A stretch of DNA of 64,000 nucleotides. Source: an uncultured Fibrobacteraceae bacterium. Its GTDB lineage: Bacteria > Krumholzibacteriota > Krumholzibacteriia > LZORAL124-64-63. Positions 10,747 to 60,774 of this stretch are shown in pieces. The translations under genes were made by a program, and so were the position numbers. The notes below the pieces were generated by a model. It worked only from the letters and a program-made list of their open reading frames with translations, was not told the DNA's origin and did not search any database. Location of the stretch: assembly GCA_964607825.1 (NCBI GenBank), contig CAZSNA010000003.1:552-64551 (forward strand). The letters run 5' to 3'. Every line of letters starts with the position of its first letter. The first letter of the stretch is position 1.

Positions 10747-10844
10747 CCCGCCTTGTCGCACGCGATCCCGTCGTGTAACCTGTGCGCCACGCGCCGGAGG
10801 GCGCGCTGACGCGTCCACGACCAACACGTAGGGAGCGTGCCGGG

Positions 10845-12098
10845 GTGACCGACTACCGATTCAGACGACTCGCGGGCGCGGCGGCGCTCGCGCTGCTCTG
10901 CCTGGCGGCGCCGGGGGGCGTCGCCGCCTTCGAGAACGCCGTCTTCGGCGAGATCGCCGTGGAGGGCAACACCTCCACCCGCACCGACCTGATCCTGCAC
11001 GAACTGGGCTTCGCCGAGGGCGATCCCTTCGACTTCGCCCGGCTCGACGCGTCCTGGGAGCACCTCGAGGACCTGGGCTGGTTCGCCTTCGTGGACATGG
11101 ACTACGACGACACCGACCCCGACCGGATCGCGGTGACCGTGATCGTGGAGGAGGACGCGACCACCCGCTACTACCCCGTCATCGACTACGACCCGCGCTG
11201 GGACGTGCTCCTCGGCGCCCGCGTCTACGACATCAACTTCCGCGGCCGCGGCGAGCGGCTGTCCCTCGGCGCCACCTGGTACGCGCGGCACGGCTACGAG
11301 CTCGACTGGTCCCACCCCTGGCTCTTCGGCGTGGACGGCCTGAGCTGCGGCGTCGGCCTGACGTGGGAGCGGGCCGCATTCGAGTTCCTCGACTTCGACT
11401 TCCGGCGCTGGGCCGCGGGCGGGCACCTGCGCTGGGACTTCGCACGCCCCTTCTTCGCGGAGGCCGGCGTCACCCTGCACGACTTCGAGCAGGAGACGGC
11501 CACGGCCGAGCTGCCCGTCGCCTTCGGGGCCGAGGCGCGCAACCGCACCATCCTGCGCCTCGGCGTCGGCGTGGACAGCCGCGACCTGGTCCACTACCCG
11601 ACGAGGGGCGTCTACGGCCGCCTCGCGGTCGAGCGCGTGGACCGGCCCGCCTTCTACGAGACCCGCACCCTGCTGACGGGCGACCTGCGCGGCTTCGTGC
11701 CCCTGCCCTGGGAGCACGTGCTGGCCCTGCGCGCCTGGGGCCGCCGCGTCGACGGCCCGCTCTGGCCCGAGGACATGCTCTTCTGGGGCGGCGCCGACAC
11801 CATCCGCGGCTACGACTACGCCTCGCTGGCCGGCGAGGAGGGCTTCCTGCTCAGCGCCGAGTACCGCTGGCCCCTGTTCCTGATGACCATCTCCGGGGAC
11901 GGCCGCGTGATCGGGATCGGCCTGCACGCCTTCGCCGACGCGGGGTCGAACTGGTGGGACGAGGAGACACGTTCCACCCTTTACAGCTGGGGCGGCGGCG
12001 CGCACTTCGGCATCTCCGACCACCAGTTCCGCTTCGAGGTCGCCGTCGACGACGACGGCGGGGCCTCGTTCCAGTTCATGGACCATTTCAACTTCTGA
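10845..12098 (+). CDS. Omp85-family outer-membrane protein (single POTRA plus D15 barrel); start could be the ATG at 10782
   Basis: Signal peptide 'RRLAGAAALALLCLAAPGGVAAFE', beta-barrel-like repeats, and the gene ends in an aromatic 'HFNF'. Confidence 0.7.
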   Translation: MTDYRFRRLAGAAALALLCLAAPGGVAAFENAVFGEIAVEGNTSTRTDLILHELGFAEGDPFDFARLDASWEHLEDLGWFAFVDMDYDDTDPDRIAVTVIVEEDATTRYYPVIDYDPRWDVLLGARVYDINFRGRGERLSLGATWYARHGYELDWSHPWLFGVDGLSCGVGLTWERAAFEFLDFDFRRWAAGGHLRWDFARPFFAEAGVTLHDFEQETATAELPVAFGAEARNRTILRLGVGVDSRDLVHYPTRGVYGRLAVERVDRPAFYETRTLLTGDLRGFVPLPWEHVLALRAWGRRVDGPLWPEDMLFWGGADTIRGYDYASLAGEEGFLLSAEYRWPLFLMTISGDGRVIGIGLHAFADAGSNWWDEETRSTLYSWGGGAHFGISDHQFRFEVAVDDDGGASFQFMDHFNF

Positions 12099-23513: not shown

Positions 23514-23905
23514 TGAAGCCCTCCTCCCCCACTGCTTCGGTACTGGCCCGGTTGAAAGCCAGCATGTCGCCCTATGAAGCTTGGAGACGGGCTCTGAAAA
23601 CCATCATGAGCTATTTTACTCCCGATTGCAACAGGAATTTTCGCATCAGCTGTCAGGATATTCCTTACAAATTTGACAAGTACATAGACGACACCGAATC
23701 GCCGCCAGGAAAATTGAGAGATAAAAAGTCGAGTTTACATATCTTATATCCCCGGTTCCATCTCCGGGCCCACATGTGGTATACTTGTCTTCCCCGTCAT
23801 GGTCCACAGGTACAGGCACCCGAAGTAACCGCCAACGGGTGGACCGCTCTCGCCATCACTCACACTCACGCCGGCCCGTACGGCCGGAGAGAAGGGGCTT
23901 ACGCA

Positions 23906-26900
23906 ATGAAGAAGGTTCTTGCCGTCGTCCTGGCGCTGCTCATGTGCGCCGGCGCAAGTTTCGCGGGCCAGGTCACGCCCGGCCTCGACGCCTTGATGAA
24001 GACCATGGACGGTCGTGACGAGATCACCGTCCTCGTCGTGATGCGCGACCGCGTCGACATCGAGGCCCTCGACTGGGAGCTGAGGGACGCCAAGGCCTCC
24101 TTCGAGATCCGCCACGAGACCGTGGTCACCAGCCTGCGCGACAAGGCCGCCGCCACACAGGCCGGCCTGCTCGCCGACCTGGAAGCCGACAAGGCCGGCG
24201 GAGTCGTCAAGGGCTACACGCCCCACTGGCTGATCAACGCCGTCGTCGTGCGCACCACCGTGGACGACGTGCCCCGGCTGGCCGCCCGCGACGACGTGGA
24301 CGTGGTCGAGCCCGACCTGAGGGTCGAGCTGATCGAGCCCGTCGGCGAGGGCCGGTCCAAGGGCCGCGCAGCCAAGGGCATCGGCACCGCGCCCGGCGTG
24401 GAGGACGTCGGCGCCCGCCGCGTCTGGGAAGAGCTGGGCATCGACGGCACCGGCGCCGTGGTCGGCGTGCTGGATACGGGTGTCGACGGGGCCCACGCAG
24501 CCCTGAGCGGTTCGTACCGCGGCAACCACGGCGCGCCCGACAGCGAGTGCTGGATCGACGCCGCCGGCCTCGGCGACTCGACCCCCGTGGATCAGCACTA
24601 CCACGGCACCCACGTCATGGGCACCATCTGCGGCCTCGCGGCCGACGACACCATCGGCGTGGCGCCCGGCGCCCACTGGATCGCGTCCAACGTGATCAAC
24701 ATGAGCGCCGGCGAAGCCTTCGACAACGCCGTGATCGCCTCGCTCGAGTTCATGACCGACCCCGACGGCGATCCCGGCACCACCGACGACGTCCCCGACG
24801 TCGTGCAGAACAGCTGGGGCGTCAACGAGGGCTTCACCGGCTACTACGACTGCGACTCGCGCTGGTGGACCGCCATCGACGCCTGCGAGGCGGCGGGCGT
24901 GGTCCTGACCTGGTCGGCGGGCAACGAGGGGTCCTCGAGCGGCACCATGCGCAGCCCGGCCGATCGCGCCGACAGCATCTTCAACACCTTCAGCGTCGGC
25001 TCGACCAACCACACGGCGCCTTACGCGGTGAGCGGCTTCTCCAGCCGCGGGCCCTCCGGCTGCGGCGGCACCTACGACATGAAGCCCGAGATCATGGCCC
25101 CCGGCGACGACATCTACAGCGCCGAGCCCGGCGGTACCTACCAGTACCTCAGCGGTACGTCCATGGCCGGCCCGCACATCGCGGGCGTGGTGGCGCTGAT
25201 GCGCTCCGCCAACCCCGGCCTCGACGTCGAGACCATCAAGCAGATCCTGATGGACACGGCCATCGACATGGGCGTCGCCGGCGAGGACAACGACCACGGC
25301 CACGGCTTCGTGGACGGTTACGCCGCCGTGCTGGCGGTCATGTCCGGCTACGGCACCATCGAGGGCACCGTGACCGACCTGTCCTCCGGCCTGCCCATCG
25401 CCGGCGCGTCGGTCACCCTGAGCATGGTCGGCGAGGCGGACCGCGTCCGCACCACCGATGCGAGCGGCTACTACTCGACCATGCTGCCCCAGGGCGACTG
25501 GGACATCAGCGTGAGCGCCTTCGGCTACATCGACGACTCGGCCACCGCCGTGTCCGTGGTCGAGGATCTCACCACCACCCAGGACTTCGCCCTGACGACC
25601 GCCCCCTCGGCCCTGCTCAGCGGCTACGTCTACGACGACGAGGCCGCCCCGGTCGACGGCGCGGCGATCACGATCCTGAACACCCCGCTGGCTCCGGCCA
25701 CTTCCGGCGTCGACGGGTACTACGAGATCACCATGCCCACCGGCACGACCTACGACGTGCTGGCCTCGGCCTACGGCATGGGCAGCCAGCAGGTGGCCAT
25801 CGACTTCCAGGGCGCCACGACCCAGGACTTCACGCTGCCCCAGCTGGTCTTCGAGAACTTCGAGAGCAACTCCCTGGTGGTCTTCCCGTGGGAGACCAGC
25901 GGCAACGCCGACTGGTTCACCACCTCGGACGCCGCCTACGAGGGCCTGTACAGCGCCAAGTCCGGCAACATCACCCACAACGAGGTCTCGACGCTGTCGA
26001 TCACGATCGACGTGCTGGCGGCCGGCAACCTGGAGTTCTACTACAAGGTCTCGTCAGAGAGCGGCTGGGACTTCCTGCAGTTCTCCATCGACGGCGCCCA
26101 GCAGGACTCGTGGTCCGGCGAGATCGACTGGACCCTGGCCAGCTACCCGGTGACCTCCGGCTCGCACACCTTCGCCTGGACCTATGACAAGGACGGATCG
26201 GTGGACTCGGGCGACGACTGCGCCTGGATCGACTACGTGGTCTTCCCGACCATCGCCGAGCCGACCTACCCCGAGATGACGGTCGCCCCGGCGAGCCTGG
26301 AGGAGTGGCTGCAGCCCGACGAGACGTCGACGCAGTACATCACCCTGGACAACACCGGCGAGGGCGAGCTGATCTACAACGTGAGCGTCGACCTCGACCC
26401 GCTGCCCGCCAAGGCGTCCGCCCCCGCGGAGGACGTGTACGTGGCCAAGGACGAGCCCGACACCCGCGTCGGCCAGTCGCCCCTGCTGGGCTCCGGCGGG
26501 CCCGACGCCGCCGACTACACCTGGATCGACAGCAACGAGTTCGGCGGACCGGTCTTCGACTGGGTGGAGATCAACACCATCGGCACGGCCGTGTCGCTGA
26601 CCGACGACTCCTACTCGGCGGACCTGGCCCTGGGCTTCGACTTCACCTTCTACGGCAACGTGTTCAGCACGGTGAAGATCTGCTCCAACGGTTTCCTGTC
26701 CTTCGACGGCACGGCGACCGACTACTCCAACGACCCGATGCCGAACACGGTCGCGCCCAACAACATGATCGCCCTGTTCTGGGACGACCTGAACCCCAAC
26801 GACGGCGGCAGCATCTACTACTACGCAGACGCGGCCAACTCGCGGTTCATCGTCGAGTACGAGCAGGTTCCGCACTACAGCTACAGCGGGACCGGCACGT

Positions 26901-27580
26901 ACACCATGCAGGCGATCCTGAACGCCGACGGCTCCATCGTGTGCCAGTACCTCGACATGGTGGGCGACATCGACTCGGCGACGCTCGGCATCGAGAACTC
27001 GGGCGGCGACATCGGCCTCCAGGTCGTCTACAACGCGGCCTACATGGAGAACAGTCTCGCCATCCTGTACAGCTTCGTGCCCCCGCCGCCGCCCTGGCTG
27101 GTCGTGACGCCCACCAGCGGCACGATCCCGGGCATGACGAGCGGCACGCAGCTCGAGGTGTTCTTCGACGCCACCGGCCTGGCCGTGGGCGTGTACAACG
27201 GCACCGTGACCATCGGCAGCAACGACCCGGACAACTCCCAGGTCGTGGTGCCGGTCACGCTGAACGTCAGCTCGGGCACCTCCGCCGACCAGCTGCCCAG
27301 CAGCTTCGAGCTCGGCGCGGCCTATCCCAACCCGTTCAACCCCTCGACCAAGATCGCCTACGCGGTCCCGGCCGGCGGCGGACGGGTGGAGCTGAACATC
27401 TACGACCTGTCGGGACGCCTCGTGCGCACCCTCGTCTCGGGCCATCGTCCGGCCGGCGACCACACCGTGGTCTGGACGGGCGACGACGAGCAGGGACGCC
27501 GCATGGCTTCCGGCACGTACTTCTACCGCCTGCAGGCGAACGACGTCGACACCACCCGCAAGATGGTGCTGGTGAAGTAG
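23906..27580 (+). CDS. S8 subtilisin-like serine peptidase with carboxypeptidase-regulatory-like domains and a T9SS type-A C-terminal sorting domain
   Basis: Signal peptide, the S8 triad motifs 'DTGVDGAHAAL', 'HGTHVMGTI' and 'GTSMAGPHIAGV', and a C-terminal 'YPNPFNPSTKIAY...GTYFYRLQANDVDTTRKMVLVK'. Confidence 0.85.
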   Translation: MKKVLAVVLALLMCAGASFAGQVTPGLDALMKTMDGRDEITVLVVMRDRVDIEALDWELRDAKASFEIRHETVVTSLRDKAAATQAGLLADLEADKAGGVVKGYTPHWLINAVVVRTTVDDVPRLAARDDVDVVEPDLRVELIEPVGEGRSKGRAAKGIGTAPGVEDVGARRVWEELGIDGTGAVVGVLDTGVDGAHAALSGSYRGNHGAPDSECWIDAAGLGDSTPVDQHYHGTHVMGTICGLAADDTIGVAPGAHWIASNVINMSAGEAFDNAVIASLEFMTDPDGDPGTTDDVPDVVQNSWGVNEGFTGYYDCDSRWWTAIDACEAAGVVLTWSAGNEGSSSGTMRSPADRADSIFNTFSVGSTNHTAPYAVSGFSSRGPSGCGGTYDMKPEIMAPGDDIYSAEPGGTYQYLSGTSMAGPHIAGVVALMRSANPGLDVETIKQILMDTAIDMGVAGEDNDHGHGFVDGYAAVLAVMSGYGTIEGTVTDLSSGLPIAGASVTLSMVGEADRVRTTDASGYYSTMLPQGDWDISVSAFGYIDDSATAVSVVEDLTTTQDFALTTAPSALLSGYVYDDEAAPVDGAAITILNTPLAPATSGVDGYYEITMPTGTTYDVLASAYGMGSQQVAIDFQGATTQDFTLPQLVFENFESNSLVVFPWETSGNADWFTTSDAAYEGLYSAKSGNITHNEVSTLSITIDVLAAGNLEFYYKVSSESGWDFLQFSIDGAQQDSWSGEIDWTLASYPVTSGSHTFAWTYDKDGSVDSGDDCAWIDYVVFPTIAEPTYPEMTVAPASLEEWLQPDETSTQYITLDNTGEGELIYNVSVDLDPLPAKASAPAEDVYVAKDEPDTRVGQSPLLGSGGPDAADYTWIDSNEFGGPVFDWVEINTIGTAVSLTDDSYSADLALGFDFTFYGNVFSTVKICSNGFLSFDGTATDYSNDPMPNTVAPNNMIALFWDDLNPNDGGSIYYYADAANSRFIVEYEQVPHYSYSGTGTYTMQAILNADGSIVCQYLDMVGDIDSATLGIENSGGDIGLQVVYNAAYMENSLAILYSFVPPPPPWLVVTPTSGTIPGMTSGTQLEVFFDATGLAVGVYNGTVTIGSNDPDNSQVVVPVTLNVSSGTSADQLPSSFELGAAYPNPFNPSTKIAYAVPAGGGRVELNIYDLSGRLVRTLVSGHRPAGDHTVVWTGDDEQGRRMASGTYFYRLQANDVDTTRKMVLVK

Positions 27581-27659: not shown

Positions 27660-28484
27660 TCAGTCGGACGTGATCGACAGCCCCTTGTTCCCCTCGCGGT
27701 GCGTCGACAGGGCGAAGATCGCCGTCTCGGGGCAGAAGGCGGCCTCGAGCCGGCCGCGATAGGGCGCCAGGGCCGCGTCGATGCGGGCGGGCACGGCGCC
27801 CTGCCAGGGATAGAGGGAGCGGTCGTCGCCCAGACGCTCCAGCTCCGTCACCAGTTCCTCGATCAGGACCGGGTCGGAGCCCGCGGCGTCCCGGGCGTCG
27901 TCGAGCTGGTGGCGCAGCATGTCGCGCAGGGCGCGGCGGACGCGGGGGCTGGAGTCCTCGACCTGGACGTTGTCGTCGTCGATGTCCTCCACCTGCACCT
28001 CGAGCCAGGCGTAGTAGGCCAGGGCGTAGATGTAGGTGTACTCGCCGAGACCCATGCCGTGGTCCTGCAGCGCCTCGTTGCGGTGGACGGCCAGACGGCC
28101 CAGCTTGCCGGCCATGCCGAAGCCCTCGCGCACGGTCTTGAAGACCTCCTTGATCTTCTGCCCGCCGGAGAGCTCGTCCTCGTCGAGGGCGTCCATGCGG
28201 CGGAACTGGGCGAAGGCCTCGGCGAACTCGCCGCAATGGGCCATCAGCTCGGTCCGTACGTCCAGGAAGATCTCCATGCGGTCGGGCGCGGGCGCGCCGT
28301 CCGGGGGCGGACGGTAGTCGGCCTGGGTCCCGTAGGTCTCCTCGAGCTTCTCGCGCGCGTCGACGGCGTCCTTGAAGGGCTTCATGAGCATGAATCCTCC
28401 GCCGAACGAACAGGCGATCCCCAGCACGATCATCAGCCCGCAACCGATCGCGCAGCCCTTCAGCCAACCCATGCCCGATGCCAT
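27660..28484 (-). CDS. Hypothetical membrane-anchored protein (N-terminal transmembrane segment plus an acidic soluble domain)
   Basis: Starts 'MASGMGWLKGCAIGCGLMIVLGIACSFGGGF'. The longer in-frame upstream extension is Arg-rich junk. Confidence 0.5.
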   Translation of the reverse strand: MASGMGWLKGCAIGCGLMIVLGIACSFGGGFMLMKPFKDAVDAREKLEETYGTQADYRPPPDGAPAPDRMEIFLDVRTELMAHCGEFAEAFAQFRRMDALDEDELSGGQKIKEVFKTVREGFGMAGKLGRLAVHRNEALQDHGMGLGEYTYIYALAYYAWLEVQVEDIDDDNVQVEDSSPRVRRALRDMLRHQLDDARDAAGSDPVLIEELVTELERLGDDRSLYPWQGAVPARIDAALAPYRGRLEAAFCPETAIFALSTHREGNKGLSITSD

Positions 28485-28793
28485 GCTCTCCGCTCCCGGT
28501 CGAGGTGTGGTTCCATACGCCCCTGTCAGACGCTGAAACCGCCGTGCGTGTTGCACGGCGAGCATGCCCGCGACGGCCCGGCGCCGCAAGGACGTATCCC
28601 GCAGGGCGTTTTGCCGTCCCGGCGCGTCGGATTCTGCACGACCCGCCGTCGCGGCGCTCCCGGCGACGCGGAAGCGGCGCGGCGCCCCGTTCCCCGCCGT
28701 TCCCGGGCGTTCCCTCCGGCTCCGTCGGCACGTCCGGGCGCGCTCCATGCATCCCCGCGGTCACTCCCGGGGATGTGGGAGGAGGAGGGTCGA

Positions 28794-29468
28794 ATGAAAC
28801 ATGCCAACGTCATTTCCCTGATCATGGTGATCCTCGGCGCCCTCTGCCTGTTCGCGGGCGAGGCCGAGGCGATCATCGTCGATCTGGACGGCTTCGCGGT
28901 GGGCGCGGTGGTCGCGGGCGAGTCGCCCGACGGCACGCAGACCGCCGCCAACCTCTTCGAGGACTTCACCCTCGTCGTAGACAACTACGGGAACGGGCCG
29001 AACTCGCTGGTGGTCTGCGAATCCGTCGAGTTCATCGGACACGGCGACAAGAGCGCGGACAAGGGCCCTGGCAACGGCGGAGACCACATCATGATGATCG
29101 CCGGTAACGTCCTCGACCGGCGCCCCCCCGACGGCTTGGTGGACGACCCCGTCCACCAGCCGGAGGGCGGGTCTGTGGATGTGCTGTTCTCGGCGCCGGT
29201 GAACATGGCCTACGTCCTGCTCGACGTGACCGAAGCGGAAGGACTGACCTACAAGCTGATCGTGGATGGCGTGCCGACGGTGTCCGTGAGCGACGGCGCG
29301 CAGTGGGAGAACGGAGGGATCTTCATCGATCTGGACGGGTATCTGTCCGTCCAGACCATCCGCCTGGAACTGGGTGGCGGCGTCGGCATCGCGAGAATCG
29401 CGTACTTCCCGGAATCCGTGGCCGCGGAAGCGGCCTCGTGGGGCGCGGTCAAGACGATGTACAGGTAG
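28794..29468 (+). CDS. Small Sec-secreted protein of 224 aa ending in the decapeptide SWGAVKTMYR; a paralogue of 47448..48152
   Basis: RBS GGAGGAGGG, signal peptide 'LIMVILGALCLFAGEAEA', a mature N-terminus 'IIVDLDGF' and the shared C-terminal motif. Confidence 0.65.
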   Translation: MKHANVISLIMVILGALCLFAGEAEAIIVDLDGFAVGAVVAGESPDGTQTAANLFEDFTLVVDNYGNGPNSLVVCESVEFIGHGDKSADKGPGNGGDHIMMIAGNVLDRRPPDGLVDDPVHQPEGGSVDVLFSAPVNMAYVLLDVTEAEGLTYKLIVDGVPTVSVSDGAQWENGGIFIDLDGYLSVQTIRLELGGGVGIARIAYFPESVAAEAASWGAVKTMYR

Positions 29469-47447: not shown

Positions 47448-48152
47448 ATGATCCGCTCCACCATTCTACTGCTGGTCTCGCTGCTGGCCGCGGCTCCCGC
47501 CGCCGCCGACATCATCCTGGACGTGGATTTCGAGGGGCAGCCCCTCGATCAGGTCATCGGCACGGGCGGCGCGGCCGCCGGGCAGCCCTACGACATCTAC
47601 AACTGCACCCCGATCGTGCGCGACGGGCCGATGGGCTCGTACTGCCTGGAGATCGAGGACATCGCCGACTTCGGCACGGGCAACGTGTTATTCGCATTCC
47701 TCGACGACGCCGAGATCGTCACCGGCACCGTCGAGATCGTCTGCGACCTCTGGTTCGACTACCTGGAGTTGTACCACTTCTACGTGCGCGAACAGGGCAG
47801 TTCCGGGCAGGAGTTCCTGACGGCCTACTTCCTCGATGGCGGCGCCGTGGCTTTCCACGACCAATCGGGCTTTGCGGGCTCCGCGACCTACGAGGTCGGC
47901 CGCTCCATCCGGCTGCGCGTCCTGTACGATATAGACGCGGGCACGTACGACCTGTGGTGGGACGGAACCCGGGTGATCACCGACCGCGCCCACGGCATCG
48001 TCGGCCGGGGCGTCGGCAGCATCATCGTGGGCACCGACCACGACGAGGATCTGGACGGCCTCTTCTACATCGACGATCTGCGGGTGGAGACGGACGTCTC
48101 GACGCCGACGACGGCCACGGACTGGGGTTCGCTGAAACTCCTCTGGAAGTAA
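47448..48152 (+). CDS. Small Sec-secreted protein of 234 aa ending in DWGSLKLLWK (lectin/jelly-roll-like body)
   Basis: RBS GGAGGAATCCC-ATG, signal peptide 'LLLVSLLAAAPAAAD', a mature N-terminus 'IILDVDFEG' and the shared C-terminal motif. Confidence 0.65.
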   Translation: MIRSTILLLVSLLAAAPAAADIILDVDFEGQPLDQVIGTGGAAAGQPYDIYNCTPIVRDGPMGSYCLEIEDIADFGTGNVLFAFLDDAEIVTGTVEIVCDLWFDYLELYHFYVREQGSSGQEFLTAYFLDGGAVAFHDQSGFAGSATYEVGRSIRLRVLYDIDAGTYDLWWDGTRVITDRAHGIVGRGVGSIIVGTDHDEDLDGLFYIDDLRVETDVSTPTTATDWGSLKLLWK

Positions 48153-48182
48153 GGGTTTAGCTCACGTGTCGAGTCATAAATA

Positions 48183-48211
48183 TTGACCTTTCGTGCTATA
48201 TTTGCTACACT
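48183..48211 (+). promoter_or_regulatory. Sigma70-like promoter TTGACC-17-TACACT upstream of 48258
   Basis: ttgaccttcgtgctatatttgctacact in an AT-rich spacer. Confidence 0.45.
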
Positions 48212-48257
48212 TGTGGAGTTCGGTGCATCGCCCACCCGTCACATGCCGAGGTAAGAC

Positions 48258-48980
48258 ATGAAACGTGCGTGCCTCGCGGCCTGGTTGATCCTGGTCACGG
48301 CCGTGTACGTGCAGGCCGGAAAGACGCTGCAGGTGGAGCCCCTGTCCGGCGAGCCCACGACGGTTTCCGGCTTCGGCGTCATCACAGACGGCGACGACTG
48401 CCTCGTCGGCAACGACAACGGCGTCTTCTACGCGGTCCCCAACTGGATCTGGGGCGCCGAGACCTACACCTACCTCTTCGACCCCCTGGGCACCTGCGGC
48501 TGCGACGTCGGCTTCGAGATCGACGCCGTGCACATGATCGTGCAGTTCGGCGCGGAGGACGTGCCCCAGAGCTTCAACGCCTATGCTGAGGTGGGCGCGG
48601 CGGTCTGGAACGACCAGGCCATGCGCTGGGAGCCCGGCCCAGCCCACTGCACCGGCCCGGTCACCCAGATCGAGATCACCGACGCCGGCCTCTACGACAT
48701 CGTGCTGCCCGTGGACGACTGCGGCTGCATGGAGCTGGTCCACGACTACGCCATCTCCTTCAATCTCGTCGACTTCCTGGCCTCCAGCATCGACGCGGTC
48801 ACCGACGACGTTCCAGAACCCGGCTCGAGCTGGAACGACTACGGTCTGGGCTGGTTCGACCTGGTCCAGGACTTCGGCTACCCCGGCAACCTGCTGATCT
48901 GGGCCGACGCGGACTGCTGCGAGTCCCCGGTGGCCGGCGAGCCCGCGAGCTGGGGCGAGATCAAGTCCTACTACAGGTGA
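48258..48980 (+). CDS. Small Sec-secreted Cys-rich protein of 240 aa ending in SWGEIKSYYR
   Basis: RBS GAGGTAAG, a signal peptide, eight or more Cys (CGC, CGC and CC pairs) and the shared C-terminal motif. Confidence 0.65.
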   Translation: MKRACLAAWLILVTAVYVQAGKTLQVEPLSGEPTTVSGFGVITDGDDCLVGNDNGVFYAVPNWIWGAETYTYLFDPLGTCGCDVGFEIDAVHMIVQFGAEDVPQSFNAYAEVGAAVWNDQAMRWEPGPAHCTGPVTQIEITDAGLYDIVLPVDDCGCMELVHDYAISFNLVDFLASSIDAVTDDVPEPGSSWNDYGLGWFDLVQDFGYPGNLLIWADADCCESPVAGEPASWGEIKSYYR

Positions 48981-49091
48981 TCGGCCCCCCTCGATCCTGA
49001 CTTCCGATAAAATTACCTGACTGCCCAGTTTATTGACACACGGGACGGGTCTTTGACCGATCCACTCCCAGGTTGTCAAAAAATATGCAAT

Positions 49092-49120
49092 TTGCACTAT
49101 AGATATTTTGATTGTATAAT
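49092..49120 (+). promoter_or_regulatory. Sigma70-like promoter TTGCAC-17-TATAAT upstream of 49269
   Basis: tttgcactatagatattttgattgtataat; the surrounding 280-bp spacer is AT-rich. Confidence 0.5.
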
Positions 49121-49268
49121 CGCCTGTTCATGCCCGTTTCTCCCCCTGCGGATACGTGTGGAAATCCCGGGGACCGGCATGGAGCCGCCGGACCTCGGCG
49201 ACGGATGATGGTCCCCGCCTTGCAGCAACCGCGAGGTCGGCCCCATCCACACCTTCGGGAGAGATTGA

Positions 49269-50357
49269 ATGAAGCGTCTTGCCTCGATCGCCCAGATCGC
49301 CCTCTTCGCCGTCCTTGTCCCGGCCTCGGCCGCGCCCGTCGCCGCCGAGCCGCTGACCAACCTGTTCATGCTCCACCATTCCACCGGACGCAACGTCATC
49401 GAGGAAGGCGACGTGCGCGGCTGGATCGACACCCACAACCTGTCCGAGGGCGCGGCCTTCGAGTTCTGGGACCACGACTACAACCACATCGGCCTGACCG
49501 GCCCCGACGGGACCAAGCTGGAGACGTCGTACGGCATCCCAGACGACAACACCGACCCCGACGGCCTGCTCACCCTGTGGACCACGCCCAACGACGCCCG
49601 CGACCAGATCCTCGCCAACCACGAGGTCATCGCCTTCAAGTCCTGCTACCCCGCCTCGGACATCGAGAGCGACACGGAGCTCGAGACGCGCAAGGCCTGG
49701 TACCTGGCCATGCGCGACGTCTTCGACCAGCACCCGGACAAGGTGTTCGTGGTCATGTCGCAGCCGCCGCTGCACCGGCTCAACACGAACAAGGACGCGG
49801 CCGACCGCGCCCGCGCCTTCGCGAACTGGCTCAAGTCGGACGCGTACCTCGCGGGCCACGACAACGTGGTGTGCCTCGACTTCTTCGACCAGTTCGCCGC
49901 GCCCGATGACGGCGCCGACACGGCGAACATGCTGCGCTGGGAGTACGAGCGCAGCCACTACAGTTCCGACTCGCACCCGAACACCCACGCCAACGAGATC
50001 GTGGGTCCGTGGTTCGCGGCGAAGCTGGTGGACGCGGCGTCGGCCCTCGACGCGGCCCTGACCGATGCGGGCGCGCCCCGTCTCGGCCTGGCCCTCGGCG
50101 CCCACCCGAACCCGTTCAACCCGCGGACGACCCTGTCGTTCACCCTGTCGGAGCCCGGCCCGGTCTCCCTGGCCGTCTACGACCTGACCGGCGCCCGCGT
50201 CGCCCTGCTGGCCGACCGCGTCTTCCCCGCCGGCGACCACGCCGTGAGCTGGGACGGCGGCGACGCCACCGGCCGCCCCCTCCCGTCCGGCGTCTACCTG
50301 GCGCGCGCGGCCACGCGCGACGCCGTGCAGACCCGCAGGATGACCCTCGTGCGCTGA
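49269..50357 (+). CDS. Secreted protein with a T9SS type-A C-terminal sorting domain and an N-terminal roughly 280-aa domain of unknown function
   Basis: Signal peptide and a C-terminal 'HPNPFNPRTTLSF...GVYLARAATRDAVQTRRMTLVR'. Confidence 0.75.
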   Translation: MKRLASIAQIALFAVLVPASAAPVAAEPLTNLFMLHHSTGRNVIEEGDVRGWIDTHNLSEGAAFEFWDHDYNHIGLTGPDGTKLETSYGIPDDNTDPDGLLTLWTTPNDARDQILANHEVIAFKSCYPASDIESDTELETRKAWYLAMRDVFDQHPDKVFVVMSQPPLHRLNTNKDAADRARAFANWLKSDAYLAGHDNVVCLDFFDQFAAPDDGADTANMLRWEYERSHYSSDSHPNTHANEIVGPWFAAKLVDAASALDAALTDAGAPRLGLALGAHPNPFNPRTTLSFTLSEPGPVSLAVYDLTGARVALLADRVFPAGDHAVSWDGGDATGRPLPSGVYLARAATRDAVQTRRMTLVR

Positions 50358-50429
50358 CGGATCACCCAGCGATCCGCACGAGCAGAAGCCCCGGCGACAG
50401 CGACCGCCGGGGCTTCGTCTGTATGGGGG

Positions 50430-51005
50430 TTAGCGGTAGAGGGCTTTAAGGGTGCTCCAGGTGACCGCTTCGACCGGATCCCAGATGCAGTCCGGGAAGC
50501 CGCCCATCGGATTCACGACCGCATCCGGCCAGCCGCCGCCGAACCTGCGGTGCAGGAGCACCAGCCCGTTCTGATCGTCCACGTATTCGAAGTGGTCCAT
50601 CCCGTCCGGGAGGCGGAGGTAGAATGAGACCGGGGCCGTATCGGCGGTGACGACGAGCCCCATCCGGAGCAGCAGGACCATCTCCTCGTGCACGGGGTCA
50701 CCGGTGCATGACAGCTCATAGGTCGAGCCTCCGTCTCCGTCGACCCAGCCGTCCATCACCTCGGGATCTCCGAAGTAGCCGACCGTGGTCTCGATCTCGA
50801 ACTCGAACGAGACGGCGGTCACAGGCCGGGAGGGCATGTAGATCGCGACGTAGACGTCGATCAGCTGGAATGGCGCCGAGTATGCGCAGGCCCACGGCAG
50901 AGCCGGATCGAGCGTGACGACGAACATGTCCGCCGCGTGGGATCCCGACTCATCGAACGGAACGAGACAGAGCACGATGAACAGTGCGGCGATCGCGCGC
51001 CTCAT
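50430..51005 (-). CDS. Small Sec-secreted protein of about 191 aa ending in TWSTLKALYR
   Basis: Signal peptide 'RRAIAALFIVLCLVP' and the shared C-terminal motif. Start at the second ATG, which has a GGAAAGG RBS. Confidence 0.6.
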   Translation of the reverse strand: MRRAIAALFIVLCLVPFDESGSHAADMFVVTLDPALPWACAYSAPFQLIDVYVAIYMPSRPVTAVSFEFEIETTVGYFGDPEVMDGWVDGDGGSTYELSCTGDPVHEEMVLLLRMGLVVTADTAPVSFYLRLPDGMDHFEYVDDQNGLVLLHRRFGGGWPDAVVNPMGGFPDCIWDPVEAVTWSTLKALYR

Positions 51006-51063: not shown

Positions 51064-51330
51064 CTACCGGGCCGCCAACCCCGCGATCACCAGCAACAGC
51101 GCCAGGTTCATCCCGATCACGAAGTGGTAGAACAGCGGTCCCACGCTGCCCGTCTCGGCCTGCGTGAGCACACGGTAGCGATGCACGTACTTGATCAGAT
51201 AGAGCCTGAGGAAGACGAAGCTGATCTTCTCGCCGCGCATCTTCAGCCAGGCGACGATGCGGATGCTCGAGGCGATCCCCCAGATCGCGCTGAGCAGGGC
51301 GAGGGTGAGGAAGGTGTTGCTCGTGTTCAT
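51064..51330 (-). CDS. Small hypothetical membrane protein (88 aa, two or three transmembrane segments)
   Basis: Hydrophobic segments 'FLTLALLSAIWGIASSI' and 'FVIGMNLALLLVIAGLAA'. Sits directly downstream of the AsnB-like gene. Confidence 0.45.
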   Translation of the reverse strand: MNTSNTFLTLALLSAIWGIASSIRIVAWLKMRGEKISFVFLRLYLIKYVHRYRVLTQAETGSVGPLFYHFVIGMNLALLLVIAGLAAR

Positions 51331-51385: not shown

Positions 51386-53248
51386 TTACCCCGCCCGTGC
51401 GTCGAGGAACTGGCTGAGCGTGAACTCGGGTTCCGCGCCCGGATCCGTCTCGTAGAAGAGCACGTGCCACAGGTCGAGGGTCACCAGCTGCAGGATGCGC
51501 GTGGCGTTGGCCGGCACGTCGTCGAACAGGGCGGCCAGGGGCTCGCGGCGGCAGAGGTCGTCCAGGTAGGGCGAGGCCAGCACGCCGCGGCGTACGCGCG
51601 CCAGGAACGTCTCGTCCAGCAGGTGGATCAGGGGGTTGATGGCGCCGCCCTGCTTGGGGCGATCGACGATGTCCTCTTCCAGCAGCTCGTAGCAGAGACG
51701 CCTGTGCAGCGCCTTGTAGGTGAAATCCTCGGGCGACTCGGGCGGCGCGTGGAAGCGCAGCAAGGTGTCGAGGGCCAGGATGTGGTCGGCCACCGCGCGG
51801 TTGCAGAAGGGCGAGAAGGTCTCCAGGCCGAGCAGGTCGCCCAGGCGGCCGTTGATCTGCAGGATGCCGTGGCAGGCGTAGTCGCGGTTGAGGACGGTGC
51901 AGCCGAAGTCGTAGAGGGCCTCCAGGTCGGTGTGCGGCAGGCCGGTCAGGGGGTAGCGGTCGTCCTCCGGTAGGGGGCGGCGCAGCAGGGCGGCCAGGTC
52001 GCAGTCGCGGAAACCGTAGCGGCCGCACCAGTAGGCCGGGTCGTACGGGGCGACCAGCTTGTTCTCCACCTTGCGCGCGAAGACGTTGTGGCGGCCCAGG
52101 GGCGAGCGGGCCAGTGTGCGCACGCCGACCAGGGCGGGCTCGAGAAGAGGGCCGTACTTGCGCCGCGCAGCCGCGCGGCGACGCACCGGCGCTACGCTGG
52201 CGCCGAAGAGCTGGTCGGCGGTCTCCCCGCCCACCACGGTCTTGACCTTCTCGCCCGCCAGGGACAGGGCGCACCAGGAGAGCATCATGCCCGGCTCGTA
52301 GAAGGGCTGCTCCGAGGCGTGCACCAGGCGCGGGAGCTCCTCGATCTCGGCGCCCTCGACCAGGCGCTCGGTGTGGTCGGTGCCGTAGCGCTCGGCCACG
52401 CGGCGGGCGTAGGGGGCGTCGGTGTGGAAGTCGGTCGAGGCGATGCCGAAGGTGGGCAGCGGACGGTCGGTGCACTCGGCCGCCAGGGCCACCAGGCTGC
52501 TGCTGTCCAGGCCGCCGCTGAGCAGGAAGCCGCAGTCGGGGTCGTGGTCCATCCAGTCGGCGACCGCGCCGGTGAGGATCTCGCGGTAGTCGGCGTAGGC
52601 GGTCTCGGGGTCGGTGATCTTCTCGGCGGGACGGGTCCAGCCGTCGAAGACCTCGACGCGCGTGCGGCCGTCCTCGACCGTCAGGCGCTCGCCGCAGCCG
52701 AGCTGCTTCACGTCGGCGTAGATGGTGCGCGGCGGGGTGGTGTAGGTGTCGGCCAGGTAGTGGTGCAGGGCGCGGTCGTCGAGCCGGGCGCGCGAGCCGG
52801 GGCTGAGCCGCAGCAGCGGCTCGATGCGGTCGGACAGGTAGAGGTAGCCGTCTCGCTCGAGGTGGTAGGCGGTGGTGATGCCCGGGAAACGGTCCTGCAG
52901 CATGAGAGTGCGGTTGCGGGCCACGTCGCGGATGAAGGCGACGCAGTGGCCGTCGAGCCGGTCGGCGAAGTCGTCGCCCAGGGTCGCGTAGAGGTGCAGC
53001 AGGGCGCGGGGGTCGTCGGCGGCCAGTCCATCGGGGAGCTGTTCGAGACAGCCGGTGATCCGGCCCCAGGCGCAGGCCACCACGCCGTCGGCCGCGGCCA
53101 CGGCCGGGGCGACGTCGCGGGCGCCGAGCAGGGCCGCGTCCTCGTCGGCGTGCAGGACGGAGGAACCGCCCAGGGGGTCGACGTCGAGGTTGCCGGGCTT
53201 GGGCCGGTCGCGGTCGAGACGGATGATGGCGACGAAACGGGCGGACAT
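51386..53248 (-). CDS. Asparagine synthetase (AsnB)-family ATP-dependent amidotransferase homologue lacking the N-terminal Cys nucleophile
   Basis: PP-loop 'LLSGGLDSSSLVALA' and an AsnB C-terminal domain. The N-terminus 'MSARF' replaces 'MCGI', so the glutaminase Cys is absent. Confidence 0.75.
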   Translation of the reverse strand: MSARFVAIIRLDRDRPKPGNLDVDPLGGSSVLHADEDAALLGARDVAPAVAAADGVVACAWGRITGCLEQLPDGLAADDPRALLHLYATLGDDFADRLDGHCVAFIRDVARNRTLMLQDRFPGITTAYHLERDGYLYLSDRIEPLLRLSPGSRARLDDRALHHYLADTYTTPPRTIYADVKQLGCGERLTVEDGRTRVEVFDGWTRPAEKITDPETAYADYREILTGAVADWMDHDPDCGFLLSGGLDSSSLVALAAECTDRPLPTFGIASTDFHTDAPYARRVAERYGTDHTERLVEGAEIEELPRLVHASEQPFYEPGMMLSWCALSLAGEKVKTVVGGETADQLFGASVAPVRRRAAARRKYGPLLEPALVGVRTLARSPLGRHNVFARKVENKLVAPYDPAYWCGRYGFRDCDLAALLRRPLPEDDRYPLTGLPHTDLEALYDFGCTVLNRDYACHGILQINGRLGDLLGLETFSPFCNRAVADHILALDTLLRFHAPPESPEDFTYKALHRRLCYELLEEDIVDRPKQGGAINPLIHLLDETFLARVRRGVLASPYLDDLCRREPLAALFDDVPANATRILQLVTLDLWHVLFYETDPGAEPEFTLSQFLDARAG

Positions 53249-53373
53249 GGTCGGCCGTCCTTCGGTTGAGGGCGCGTTGGGCACACCATTACATCATCGG
53301 CGGGGATGGGGGAAGCTTGGGTTGTTTTCGGGTGGGGGGTTCGTGGTATCGCAGGTCGATTCCACAAATACAT

Positions 53374-58134: not shown

Positions 58135-60774
58135 TCATTTCACCATCGTCATCTTCCGGATCAGCTCCTCGTCGTCGGTGCGCAGCACGTAGAAGTAGGC
58201 GCCCGAGGACACCCGCCGTCCGCGATCGTCCGCGCCGTCCCAGACGATCTCGTGTTCGCCGGCCGGACGCGTCGCCGAGAGCAGGTCGCGCACGAGGCGG
58301 CCGCGCTCGTCGTAGACCTTCAGGCTCACACGGCCGGCGGCGGCCAGGGCGTAGGCGATCTTCGTGGTCGGGTTGAAGGGGTTGGGCGAGTTCTGCGCCA
58401 GGCGCGTGACCCGCGGCGTGTCGTCGATGCCGGTCGCCACCACCTCGGTCGACGCGCTGGCCATGGCCACCGGCGCGGCGCGGCCCTGGTTGACCCAGGC
58501 GTCGTAGAGCTGCTGCCCGGCCGCGACGTCCGGATCGTTGTCGCGCAGGAACTCGATGAACTCCTTGCTGGTGGTCTGGTAGTACAGGGTGACCACGACG
58601 CTGGTCGCGTCGCCCGGCAGCTCGTAGACCGTCTCGTCCCAGTACTGACCGTCGGCATAGCTGTAGGCCACCGGCGGCGACTGGATCGTCGTGAAGGCGG
58701 CGTTGGTGAAGCCGCGCGGCGGGATGCGGTTGTCGAAGTAGACGGTGTCGTTGAGCGCCATGTTGAACGACGGCCCCGACGACACGCCGAGGATCCCCGC
58801 CAGACGCTCCGACCGGCCGGGCTTGATCTCGTAGATCTTCGCGTCCTCGTCGTGGGTGAGCACGCCGGTCGAGGCCTCGTAGGCGCCCGACTCGTACACC
58901 GGCTGCATGGCGTCGTCGTAGGCCTTCACGTTCAGCCAGACGCGGCGGCCCTCCGGATAGCCCGAGGGCAGCTTGTGGCCGGTCTCGTTGGTCACGGTGA
59001 CCCGGACGGCGGGCACGCCGCTGCCGACGATCTCCTCCACCTCCAGCGAGGCCGCCCGCTGCAGCATGCTGATGGCCCGGGCCTTGCCGCCGTCCAGGGC
59101 GGCCTGGTCGACCTCGAGGGGATAGTAGTCGGCCAGGATGTCGGGGATGAAGTGGTTGCCGCCGGTGAAGTCGTGCACGCCGATGTCGTCGCGGGTCGGG
59201 CCGCCGGCGGCGCCCTTGCCGGACTCGTCGGGCATGTGGCAGTCCTGGCAGGTCGACACGATGCCGTCGGGCTTGTTGCCGGCGAACTGCGGCGCGTAGA
59301 CGCCCGTCGCGGCGTACTCGCTCTCGCTCCACTCGCTGAAGGTGCGCTCCACCGGGAACATGTTGCGCCGGTCGCTGTCGGGGTGGGGCGCGTCGAGGGC
59401 CTGCACGACGTACTCGTCGGGCGTGGCGCCGGCGACGAAGACCGGGTTGCTCACGTCGTGGCAGGTGCCGCAGATCCCGGAGCTGAGGGTGAAGTCCGAG
59501 TGGGCGAACTGGTGGTCGGCCTGGGCGTCGGCGTAGGGGCCGCGCCGCAGGGGATCGGGATCGGTGACGAACTGGCCGTTGGCGTTGTCCAGCGGGATGG
59601 ACTCCAGCTCGGCCAGGATGTCCTCGTCGCCGGGCGGGTTGTCGCCGACCTGGTAGTGCACGTCCACGGCGCTGTGGCAGAAGTCGCACTGCACGCCCTG
59701 GCGGTCCTTGGCGTTGATCATGCCGCCGGTGGTGTCGGTGGAGCGGCCCTCCTGCCAGCCGCCCGGCGAATGGCAGCGCAGGCAGAGGTCGCCGCCGCCC
59801 GGGGCCGAGGCGTCGGTGATGCGCACCAGGGACAGGTAGAGCGGGTCGCGCATGGTGTTGCCCATCATGCTGCCGCGCCAGTTGTACCAGGGCTCGGTGA
59901 GGGTGCTGTGGTCGCCGTGGCAGGTGGCGCAGGTCTCGGCCGGGTCCTCGAGGACGGCGCCCTCGAGCGGCTGGGTGCCGGGCATCTCGAAGTCGCGCAG
60001 CGAGGTCGGGACGATGGCGCCGGCGACGGGATCGATGGTGAACGTCGCCGGGCTCTCGCCGTAGCCCTCGTTGCCCGCGTAGTCGTAGGCCTCGACCCGG
60101 ATCAGGGCGTTCGGGCCGGGATAGTTGTGCACGAACCAGTCCCACGCGCCGTCGTTGGGCAGGTCGACGGCGATGGGCTGCCACGACGCGCCCCCGTCCT
60201 CGCTGAACTCGATCTCGATCCTGGCGACGCCCGTGTCGTCGGTGGCGGTCCAGGAGATGGTCGTGACGGTGTTGGCCCCGAAGACCTCGCCGCCGAGCGG
60301 CGCCAGCAGGGTGACGACCGGGTCGACCTCGTCGGGTGCGCCCTCCGGCGTGAGGTAGGGGTCGAGGTCGGCCGTGTCCACGTTCAGGACCAGCCCCACG
60401 TTGTCCGCCTTCAGCCCGGGGAAGGTGGGCGTGTTGGCGTAGTTGACGACGTCCGTGATCTCGACGAGGTTGCTGAAGCCGTCATTGTCGGAGTCGTCGT
60501 TCTCGATGGCGAGGATCGCCTCCGAGTTGCTCAGCCCGTTGTTGAGCCCCACCTCGATGCCGACGCCGTAGGGGTTGCGCGGTCCGCCGCCGTCGAAGTC
60601 GAAGTGGCAGAGGCCGCAGTGGGACGTGCTGCTGGGCACGTCGTCGAGCTGGGTGAACTCGGCCACGGGATAGGTCGTGAAGAAGGTGCGGCGGATGGGA
60701 TTGCGGGCGAGGGCGGACGCGGCCAGGGCGACCACGAGCACGAACGCGACGGAGACGGCGAGGGGGCGACGCAT
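58135..60774 (-). CDS. Six-heme c-type cytochrome with a T9SS type-A C-terminal sorting domain (secreted, 879 aa)
   Basis: Six CxxCH motifs (CGLCH, CATCH, CLRCH, CDFCH, CGTCH, CQDCH), a signal peptide, and a C-terminal 'SPNPFNPTTKIAY...GAYFYVLRTDDEELIRKMTMVK'. Confidence 0.8.
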   Translation of the reverse strand: MRRPLAVSVAFVLVVALAASALARNPIRRTFFTTYPVAEFTQLDDVPSSTSHCGLCHFDFDGGGPRNPYGVGIEVGLNNGLSNSEAILAIENDDSDNDGFSNLVEITDVVNYANTPTFPGLKADNVGLVLNVDTADLDPYLTPEGAPDEVDPVVTLLAPLGGEVFGANTVTTISWTATDDTGVARIEIEFSEDGGASWQPIAVDLPNDGAWDWFVHNYPGPNALIRVEAYDYAGNEGYGESPATFTIDPVAGAIVPTSLRDFEMPGTQPLEGAVLEDPAETCATCHGDHSTLTEPWYNWRGSMMGNTMRDPLYLSLVRITDASAPGGGDLCLRCHSPGGWQEGRSTDTTGGMINAKDRQGVQCDFCHSAVDVHYQVGDNPPGDEDILAELESIPLDNANGQFVTDPDPLRRGPYADAQADHQFAHSDFTLSSGICGTCHDVSNPVFVAGATPDEYVVQALDAPHPDSDRRNMFPVERTFSEWSESEYAATGVYAPQFAGNKPDGIVSTCQDCHMPDESGKGAAGGPTRDDIGVHDFTGGNHFIPDILADYYPLEVDQAALDGGKARAISMLQRAASLEVEEIVGSGVPAVRVTVTNETGHKLPSGYPEGRRVWLNVKAYDDAMQPVYESGAYEASTGVLTHDEDAKIYEIKPGRSERLAGILGVSSGPSFNMALNDTVYFDNRIPPRGFTNAAFTTIQSPPVAYSYADGQYWDETVYELPGDATSVVVTLYYQTTSKEFIEFLRDNDPDVAAGQQLYDAWVNQGRAAPVAMASASTEVVATGIDDTPRVTRLAQNSPNPFNPTTKIAYALAAAGRVSLKVYDERGRLVRDLLSATRPAGEHEIVWDGADDRGRRVSSGAYFYVLRTDDEELIRKMTMVK

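Follow-up and report, generated by a model that had tools for sequence, protein, structure and literature searches.

Why should four exported proteins with unrelated bodies, all encoded within one stretch of 64,000 nucleotides, end in nearly the same ten amino acids? The stretch, hereafter the window, comprises positions 552 to 64,551 of contig CAZSNA010000003.1 (assembly GCA_964607825.1), which is labelled as an uncultured Fibrobacteraceae bacterium and placed among the Krumholzibacteriota in the GTDB lineage. An initial annotation, made from the letters alone, had noticed the shared decapeptide and put it forward as a candidate sorting or processing tag. Based on our analysis, the tail is very probably a localisation tag of some kind, and we lean, with considerable reserve, towards seeing in it an undescribed, lineage-specific, modular C-terminal sorting or attachment signal, possibly linked to type IX secretion systems (T9SS). 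The four genes and their tags are as follows (positions are those of the window):

Gene A, 47448..48152, plus strand: 234 amino acids (aa); predicted signal peptide (MIRSTILLLVSLLAAAPAAA, followed by D), concanavalin/LamG-like beta-sandwich (residues 21-215), Pro/Thr linker and C-terminal tag
Tag of A, 48096..48149, plus strand: the last 18 codons (VSTPTTATDWGSLKLLWK); core DWGSLKLLWK at 48120..48149, then TAA
Gene B, 48258..48980, plus strand: 240 aa; predicted signal peptide, Cys-rich body (9 Cys) and C-terminal tag
Tag of B, 48924..48977, plus strand: SPVAGEPASWGEIKSYYR; core SWGEIKSYYR at 48948..48977, then TGA
Gene C, 50430..51005, minus strand: 191 aa; predicted signal peptide, body of a tagged family of about 190 aa and C-terminal tag
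Tag of C, 50433..50486, minus strand: IWDPVEAVTWSTLKALYR; core TWSTLKALYR at 50433..50462, with the TAA stop at 50430..50432
Gene D, 28794..29468, plus strand: 224 aa; predicted signal peptide, body without a recognised fold and C-terminal tag
Tag of D, 29412..29465, plus strand: ESVAAEAASWGAVKTMYR; core SWGAVKTMYR at 29436..29465, then TAG

All four open reading frames (ORFs) lie where the annotation had placed them, and in each the stop codon directly follows the tail. On identical metagenome contigs an independent gene caller gave the same lengths for A, B and C (234, 240 and 191 aa), and for D the start is settled by 11 orthologues, all of which open with MK..N. The N-termini of A to D combine a basic start, a hydrophobic core of at least 10 residues and a small-x-small site; from this reading and a heuristic they look like Sec signal peptides of the signal peptidase I type, as annotated. 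The mature bodies do indeed differ, since pairwise BLASTP found no mutual similarity and aligned only the tails. None of the four has a Pfam or NCBIfam match, even at E<=1, the Cys-rich body of B has no PDB relative either, and PDB sequence searches with the C family, the D family, B and a profile of the tail returned nothing useful.

Within the window the motif is specific to these genes. In a six-frame translation of the 64 kb, the regular expression W-[GSAT]-x-[ILVM]-K-x-[LMYFIV]-[YWF]-[RK] matched A to D alone, and a degenerate DNA pattern for tag plus stop found 4 matches, against 0.00 expected from 100 dinucleotide-preserving shuffles. The shared residues are differently coded among the copies (GGT, GGC or AGC; AAA or AAG; CGC or AGG), as are the stops (TAA, TGA or TAG). 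Because codons and stop codons differ in this way, the tail must be conserved at the protein level and is not a DNA repeat.

The conserved element extends to about 18 residues, with the consensus (C/G)-P-[TV]-P-[VTA]-[ER]-x-x-[ST]-W-[GS]-x-[IV]-K-x-[LM]-[YW]-[RK]-stop, since the stretch P-[TV]-P-[VTA]-[ER] at positions -17 to -13, often with a Cys just before it, is conserved beyond the residues imposed by the probe described below. The Lys at -5 is invariant, S, T or D precedes the W, and the end is Tyr-Arg or Tyr-Lys. The tail matches no PDB chain and no model of Pfam or NCBIfam (in copies of 2025 and June 2026). A search of literature that includes few subscription journals, covering the motif, sorting signals in these phyla and PorU paralogues, did not find it described; an earlier description may exist elsewhere.

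To what extent does the tail occur in other genomes? A collection with one genome per species was searched with the DNA probe WSNTGGRGNNNNRTNAARNNNNTNTACMGNTRA, corresponding to [ST]-W-[GS]-x-[IV]-K-x-hydrophobic-Y-R-stop, which misses W-S, Leu, Trp-Arg and TAG variants and matches only D among the four window tails. At least 120 loci were found, against about 35 expected by chance (an estimate for 596 Gb, both strands and uniform base composition), and the matches listed come from about 100 assemblies. Named records make up 69 of the loci listed, the other 51 being metagenome-assembled genomes (MAGs) without a taxon label. The labels are Eisenbacteria (37), 'Fibrobacteraceae' or 'Fibrobacter sp.' (14), Krumholzibacteriota (8), Latescibacterota (4), Cloacimonadota (2) and, once each, Coatesbacteria, Effluviviaceae, Limnocylindria and Margulisiibacteriota; labels of Proteobacteria, Firmicutes and Actinobacteria are absent (0/69). 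Among the 122 matches listed, 101 terminate ORFs of 100 codons or more, the edge of the locus truncates 19, and two belong to short ORFs, one of these being the Margulisiibacteriota match, a clear product of chance. The terminal residue is Arg in all 122, though the probe also permits Ser. When phage contigs were searched with the same probe as a control, 18 of the 21 matches were short out-of-frame ORFs ending in Ser, derived from two repeated phage sequences, and three resembled true tags.

Several of these loci deserve a comment of their own. Those of Cloacimonadota have 33-40% G+C, hence the tag is not confined to GC-rich genomes. The 'uncultured Fibrobacteraceae' and 'Fibrobacter sp.' loci (L012, L034, L045, L051, L061, L076 and L083, and likewise L094, L100, L106, L109, L125, L128 and L129) have 58-70% G+C, far above that of cultured Fibrobacter, and given this composition their labels may be unreliable. 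A canonical tag (...SSTWGTIKQLYR) was also seen in L126, a MAG labelled Candidatus Limnocylindria (Chloroflexota, 70% G+C), a phylum outside the FCB (Fibrobacteres-Chlorobi-Bacteroidetes) group; this is possibly a mis-binned contig. Three IMG/VR contigs (L136, L139 and L144) encode long proteins with signal peptides and canonical tags (...STWGRVKGVYR, ...STWGQVKSLYR), which may represent host DNA in prophage calls or phage genes using the host tag.

The position of the motif is strict. In the genome loci listed, which amount to 841 kb, a stop codon follows directly or after one further residue at 158 of 165 core-motif sites. The probe had not selected 44 of the sites; of these, 37 are terminal and 4 stop at most three residues short of the end. 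One of three internal sites is accounted for by a 457-codon ORF (L096, frame 2) in which a tagged domain is tandemly duplicated, with a decayed tag (ATWTDIKILF) on the internal copy and a canonical tag (TSWGGIKALYR) on the terminal one. According to a single heuristic, a signal-peptide-like N-terminus is present in 97% of tagged ORFs, 82% of ORFs with a T9SS domain and 35% of other ORFs of these loci. The tagged proteins are short, with a median of 237 aa versus 700 aa for T9SS cargo.

Once signal peptide and tail had been removed, the 113 complete tagged proteins of these loci fell into 63 BLAST clusters, and the bodies of A to D proved unrelated to any of the 113. Their Pfam matches include Beta_helix, LTD, NHL, Chlam_PMP, several propellers, CHRD, CBM_20 and PPC, among others; no family occurs in more than 6 of the 113 proteins and none is common to all. 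Among NCBIfam matches of the bodies are families whose names refer to other sorting systems (ScyF PEP-CTERM, choice-of-anchor J, rhombosortase- and myxosortase-dependent M36, ExeM GlyGly-CTERM), as well as PelZ, a family named for an extracellular enzyme. On the best reading, the tagged proteins are exported by Sec, are mostly small (median about 235 aa) and belong to the envelope or the extracellular space; they come from Eisenbacteria, Krumholzibacteriota, Latescibacterota, Cloacimonadota and uncultured lineages related to these.

The tail is retained in relatives of the window proteins. A word-indexed search yielded 11 relatives of A, 9 of which keep a W-[GS]-x-x-K-x-x-[WY]-R tail on bodies 39-59% identical; of the other two, one carries a T9SS FlgD_ig-type domain after the same body and one ends in ...FEDGFESGGTTAWSSAVP. 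All 11 orthologues of D (49-79% identical) end in WGAVKxLY[RK]. The block formed by the nuo operon, A, B, a T9SS cargo gene, C, a gene for an 88-aa membrane protein and an AsnB-like gene is kept in GCA_014382975.1 (~51% identical), where the syntenic orthologues of B and C end in TWGAVKSLYE and SWSAVKSLYR, respectively.

The A family shows, in addition, that the tail can be exchanged for other modules. An exhaustive profile search gave 562 representatives at E<=0.001, and the endings of the best 150 of these were sorted by regular expression: a terminal tag is present in 20, a tag variant within the last 19 residues in about 29 (W replaced by F or L, K by R, Y by F), a T9SS domain in 20 and a dockerin-like module in 5, whereas about 45 end in F-x-D-G-F-E(-S-G-D-x-S-x-W-S) and the remainder are other or truncated. 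That one body can carry, at one and the same junction, the tag, a T9SS domain or a dockerin-like module is what would be expected of a localisation module. What the data show is a tag that is modular, strictly C-terminal, restricted to exported proteins and, among the matches listed, to particular lineages, and exchangeable for T9SS and dockerin-like modules. As to the second recurrent ending of this family, ...[IVL]-F-x-[DN]-G-F-E, it is often followed by S-G-D-x-S-x-W-S-x-x-x-P, and many proteins stop exactly at G-F-E (P0010, P0069, P0075, P0085, P0097, P0099, P0111, P0126, P0129 and about 35 others carry it). It has no NCBIfam match and may represent a further short tag, the boundary of a domain or the result of truncated gene calls.

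Could the shared tails have no function at all, and simply go back to the shared descent of a few paralogues or to a DNA repeat lying over gene ends? Three of the four window genes do adjoin one another. However, the bodies are unrelated, both within the window and across the 63 clusters, the copies differ in codons and stop codons, orthologues with bodies no more than 40-60% identical retain an invariant tail, and far from being limited to tandem paralogues it recurs, among the matches listed, in about 100 other assemblies from several candidate phyla. We give such an origin practically no credence. The argument of the initial annotation, that a tail shared by different bodies speaks for function rather than paralogy, has gained support from the unrelated clusters and the exchange of modules, although the function itself is still a proposal.

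Nor is the tail the last strand of one domain to which all the bodies belong. In the AlphaFold model of A, built on an 11-sequence alignment, the beta-sandwich occupies residues 21-215 with a predicted local distance difference test (pLDDT) score of about 90, and is followed by a linker and a detached helix (226-233) with pLDDT <50; in this model the tail lies outside the domain of A and does not form its last strand. Foldseek matched the body to a sialidase carbohydrate-binding module, neurotoxin Hc, calreticulin and galectins, i.e. to concanavalin/LamG-type lectin folds, which bears out the lectin-like character ascribed to it earlier. For D the model is of low quality (mean pLDDT 48.8) and its body unusable; here too a helix (213-223) follows the last strand.

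The helix predicted for the tail in both models suggests a simpler role, in which the last nine residues would form a short amphipathic helix, with W, I/V, L/M and Y on one face and K and R flanking it, and would hold the protein in the plane of a membrane or of lipopolysaccharide with no dedicated machinery, as do the C-terminal helices of PBP5 or the membrane-targeting sequence of MinD. The S, T or D before the W would suit a helix N-cap, the mean hydrophobic moment of the tails peaks at 100-120 degrees (0.56-0.64), and aromatic plus basic residues are typical of interfacial anchors. With the MinD sequence and the PBP5/PBP6 anchors the tag shares a short terminal aromatic, aliphatic and basic segment predicted as helical. 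Each of those anchors, however, belongs to a single family and conserves physical character rather than sequence, whereas the tag is conserved position by position over more than 60 families. The helix is, moreover, predicted with low confidence (pLDDT <50 in A and D), a moment of 0.56 at 100 degrees is not significant, being reached by 20% of composition-matched shuffled tails, and nine residues are very few for a monomeric anchor. The near-invariant W, K, Y and R and the upstream P-x-P-x-E suggest that a protein recognises the tail specifically, rather than that the tail binds lipid generically; the bodies belong to extracellular types (relatives of pectate lyase, nuclease and M36 protease, CBM20), and anchoring alone leaves the crossing of the outer membrane unexplained. 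We therefore regard a membrane anchor as unlikely.

Is the tag, then, a form of some C-terminal signal that is already known? It is set apart from T9SS domains, tripartite signals, beta-signals of outer-membrane proteins (OMPs), dockerins and Lpp-type tethers by failing the defining features of each. With the tripartite signals (LPXTG/sortase, PEP-CTERM/exosortase, GlyGly-CTERM/rhombosortase and MYXO-CTERM) it has in common that a short C-terminal signature is found on many unrelated exported proteins of one lineage, that tagged bodies match NCBIfam families named for such systems, and that a hydrophobic stretch and then a basic end come after a Pro-containing motif (P-x-P-x-E). But the hydrophobic stretch of the tag has about 9 residues with a Lys mid-way and cannot span a membrane, which takes a helix of about 20, and a single terminal Arg or Lys stands in place of the basic cluster. 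No sortase-, exosortase- or rhombosortase-like gene is present in the window or recurrent in the 120 loci listed, nor was one found near the tagged genes there. The OMP beta-signal ends in an aromatic residue, usually Phe, and closes a beta-barrel; the tag ends in Arg or Lys, and the tagged bodies are soluble folds (the lectin-like sandwich of A, beta-helix, propellers, LTD and others). In both comparisons the annotation had come to the same view, noting the missing transmembrane segment in the one case and the residue at the end in the other.

Dockerins (type I-like, GC-type) resemble the tag as interchangeable C-terminal modules of extracellular proteins. They are, however, calcium-binding domains of 60-70 residues with a duplicated loop-helix motif and known cohesin partners, whereas the tag is a linear peptide, and dockerin models gave no match in the 113 tagged proteins of the loci listed. 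The replacement of the tag by dockerin-like modules in some A-family members would nevertheless be in line with a docking or donor-strand peptide, bound non-covalently by a surface receptor or scaffold, perhaps a polymer of a small tagged family encoded next to a PorU-like gene (see below). Position-specific conservation fits the binding of a peptide in a groove, and arrays of 2-4 tagged paralogues of ~190 aa adjoin a C25 peptidase gene, an arrangement that recalls the protease-matured type V pilins. Against this, no candidate receptor was found near the tagged genes of the loci listed, the small PorU-linked family is itself tagged and so looks like a client rather than a receptor, and the crossing of the outer membrane would again remain unexplained; docking appears to us rather improbable.

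The invariant Lys five residues from the end and the Tyr-Arg or Tyr-Lys terminus call to mind the ...KYRK end of Braun's lipoprotein (Lpp), and by analogy the tail might serve as a covalent peptidoglycan tether through this Lys, or else as a recognition tail for a periplasmic protease or quality-control system, for which a strictly C-terminal position would suit recognition of the free C-terminus. Lpp is tethered through its terminal Lys, whereas the conserved Lys of the tag is internal, the last residue being Arg in 3 of the 4 window proteins and in every one of the 122 matches listed. Since, furthermore, the bodies are extracellular-type enzymes and binding modules, and replacement by T9SS or dockerin-like modules points to localisation and not to turnover, we consider both variants very improbable.

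The T9SS was considered in most detail. As the annotation had reported, intact T9SS C-terminal domains occur in three other proteins of the window:

T9SS cargo between B and C, 49269..50357, plus strand: 362-aa exported protein with an intact T9SS type A/FlgD_ig C-terminal domain
Subtilase (Peptidase_S8), 23552..27580, plus strand: 1342 aa, T9SS C-terminal domain; the start codon is approximate
Multihaem MtrC-like protein, 58135..60774, minus strand: 879 aa, 6 CxxCH, T9SS C-terminal domain

The tag is similar to the T9SS type A domain (Por_Secre_tail/FlgD_ig) in several respects. Both are C-terminal elements on Sec-exported proteins of FCB-type bacteria; both occur on the same kinds of cargo, including homologues of the same body (A family); tagged genes adjoin T9SS cargo genes and one tagged family adjoins a PorU-like gene; and both have hydrophobic residues and a basic end with a conserved Lys a few positions upstream. 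The last point is a resemblance out of register and too short to score: the end needed for T9SS export reads [RK]-K-h-h-L-h-[KR] in T9SS domains of the same loci, with Lys at -6, whereas the tag has Lys at -5 and ends in L-Y-R. In size and structure, by contrast, they are clearly distinct: T9SS domains have 43-90 residues, form a beta-sandwich or at least a sheet of three strands, and bear motifs B, D (GxY) and E, whereas the tag has 10-18, lacks the beta-sandwich and motifs B or D, and matches neither PF18962/TIGR04183 and FlgD_ig nor the type B model TIGR04131; the three T9SS cargo proteins of the window do match such models. It is predicted to be helical, follows another linker motif, is almost always exactly terminal, sits on smaller cargo and is absent from Bacteroidota-labelled records among the matches listed. 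It is therefore, as first annotated, neither a type A nor a type B domain.

The genomic context also speaks for a link to the T9SS. T9SS cargo adjoins tagged genes not only in the window but also in about 30 of the 120 loci listed, and the named host lineages among the matches listed are FCB-type phyla. At three genome loci, tagged proteins of about 190 aa have their genes immediately upstream of a Peptidase_C25 gene; this gene carries a T9SS domain, and the best model for it is the PorU sortase (130-167 bits, well under the cut-off of 420). A metagenome scan with this tagged family gave 79 loci, 25 of them with at least 3 kb downstream; in 12 of these 25 (two near-duplicate contig pairs included) a PorU-like gene starts 0.3-1.8 kb downstream on the same strand. 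In two loci analysed in detail, three tagged paralogues precede the PorU-like gene, with variant tails such as NWGQVKTLFQ and TFSNVKALYR. The window itself contributes a member of this family: the body-only hidden Markov model recognises C (E=1e-7) as well as its syntenic orthologue (5e-27), so that C can be regarded as a divergent member. This synteny ties one tagged family to the T9SS attachment enzyme, which is at most a candidate reader of the tag. T9SS secretion depends on SprA/Sov, PorV and PorU; for a dependence of the tagged proteins on these components, the FCB-type host range and the synteny would be indirect evidence. Support for a link also comes from published work, in which the last 22 residues of HBP35 can suffice as a T9SS signal and a conserved Lys is found in the last strand of T9SS domains, beta7 (PMC11285876, PMC11969387).

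Arrays of 2-4 such paralogues directly upstream of a PorU-like Peptidase_C25 gene were observed at L171:9254-15940, L167:9262-15942, L094:135-6278 and L023:96-7998. The C25 product has 1400-1470 aa and a T9SS domain, and the array tails show W to F, Y to F and R to Q replacements. In L171, the annotated locus, the array is flanked by mltG and SpoIID/LytB-type genes.

Based on these observations, we suggest, as a possibility rather than a probability, that the tag works as an address for a hitherto unrecognised sorting pathway in Eisenbacteria, Krumholzibacteriota, Latescibacterota, Cloacimonadota and allied lineages: a short linear signal, with neither a transmembrane segment nor a folded domain, which a dedicated envelope machine, perhaps a PorU-like branch of the T9SS sortases, would read and possibly cleave, and which tens to more than 100 mostly small surface or secreted proteins per genome would carry. 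Tagged proteins would first be exported by Sec across the inner membrane, and signal peptidase would take off the N-terminal signal peptide. The body would fold in the periplasm, with the tag hanging from its Pro/Thr-rich linker, and a protein component of the outer envelope would then read the tag and deliver the cargo to, or attach it at, the cell surface, optionally with removal of the tag at the conserved P-x-P-x-E linker. The leading candidate for the machinery would be a branch, specific to these lineages, of the apparatus for type IX secretion and attachment, e.g. a PorU-like C25 sortase; that T9SS-related machinery reads the tag at all is a tentative proposal.

A number of observations weigh against this sorting pathway, and against its T9SS link in particular. 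Bacteroidota, the main T9SS phylum, have no representative among the 69 named records listed (0/69), which means that the core T9SS cannot suffice, and the taxonomic range itself is that of a sample, the matches listed out of at least 120 loci. The tag has no sequence similarity to T9SS domains and none of their motifs B or D. The P-x-P-x-E linker motif does not precede T9SS domains in these loci (0/15). The shortest documented T9SS domains, the 'short CTDs' of Prevotella intermedia, have 43-55 residues (PMC11969387), and the T9SS tolerates C-terminal extensions (PMC11285876), whereas the tag is nearly always terminal. More distant A-family members have up to about 8 residues beyond the motif, and W, K, Y and R are each replaceable in them. 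Neighbour enrichment over the 120 loci listed revealed no general partner, only T9SS cargo, ABC ATPases and kinases; a receptor or processing enzyme for the tag was not found near tagged genes in the window or in these loci; and the synteny with PorU-like genes is limited to one tagged family. The low confidence of the modelled tail helix and its non-significant moment belong on this side as well.

The interest of the tail lies in its breadth and in the poorly known phyla that carry it, which to our knowledge have few or no cultured members. C-terminal sorting signals are the main handle for predicting surface and secreted proteomes from sequence, and LPXTG, PEP-CTERM, GlyGly-CTERM and the T9SS domain each revealed how a whole bacterial group builds its surface. 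The tag occurs on many proteins otherwise annotated just as 'hypothetical'; with a simple profile of it, a large and coherent group of exported proteins could be recognised in these genomes, and a defined set of substrates would be available for tracing the machinery by phylogenetic profiling. It would also offer a very short, portable tag for tests of envelope targeting. Should it be true that T9SS-related components read it, a signal much smaller than every T9SS domain known would thereby prove functional.

The tagged genes had also been described as clustering with a T9SS cargo gene and an AsnB-like operon. The first part of this association stands, as outlined above, while the second has no specific link to the tag: the AsnB-like neighbour is a generic asparagine-synthase homologue, scoring far below every NCBIfam subfamily cut-off, including that of the XrtA/PEP-CTERM-associated subfamily, and was dropped as a lead. 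It is paired with a gene for an 88-aa predicted membrane protein with no family match (51386..53284 and 51064..51330, respectively, both on the minus strand), and the pair recurs in the ~51% identical relative (L010:4198-6069 and L010:3873-4139). Three further ideas were set aside: a peptide with a Lys-Trp crosslink, a site for a quinone cofactor, and read-through into a T9SS domain lying downstream.

As regards the surroundings of the four genes, A and B are followed by intergenic gaps of 105 and 288 bases, respectively, both AT-rich and promoter-like. D lies ~1.2 kb downstream of the S8 protease gene, and an opposite-strand ORF of 362 aa (27660..28748, minus strand) with no Pfam or NCBIfam match is situated in between; a long, apparently spurious ORF on the other strand (27699..29468) overlaps it and extends into D. 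Elsewhere in the window, two separate Omp85/BamA-like genes (5945..7603, minus strand, and 10782..12098, plus strand) lie less than 5 kb apart, with POTRA and barrel matches below equivalog cut-offs. Finally, the combination of six CxxCH haem-binding motifs, an MtrC/MtrF-like domain and a T9SS C-terminal domain in the product of 58135..60774 suggests that it may be an extracellular electron-transfer cytochrome exported by the T9SS.

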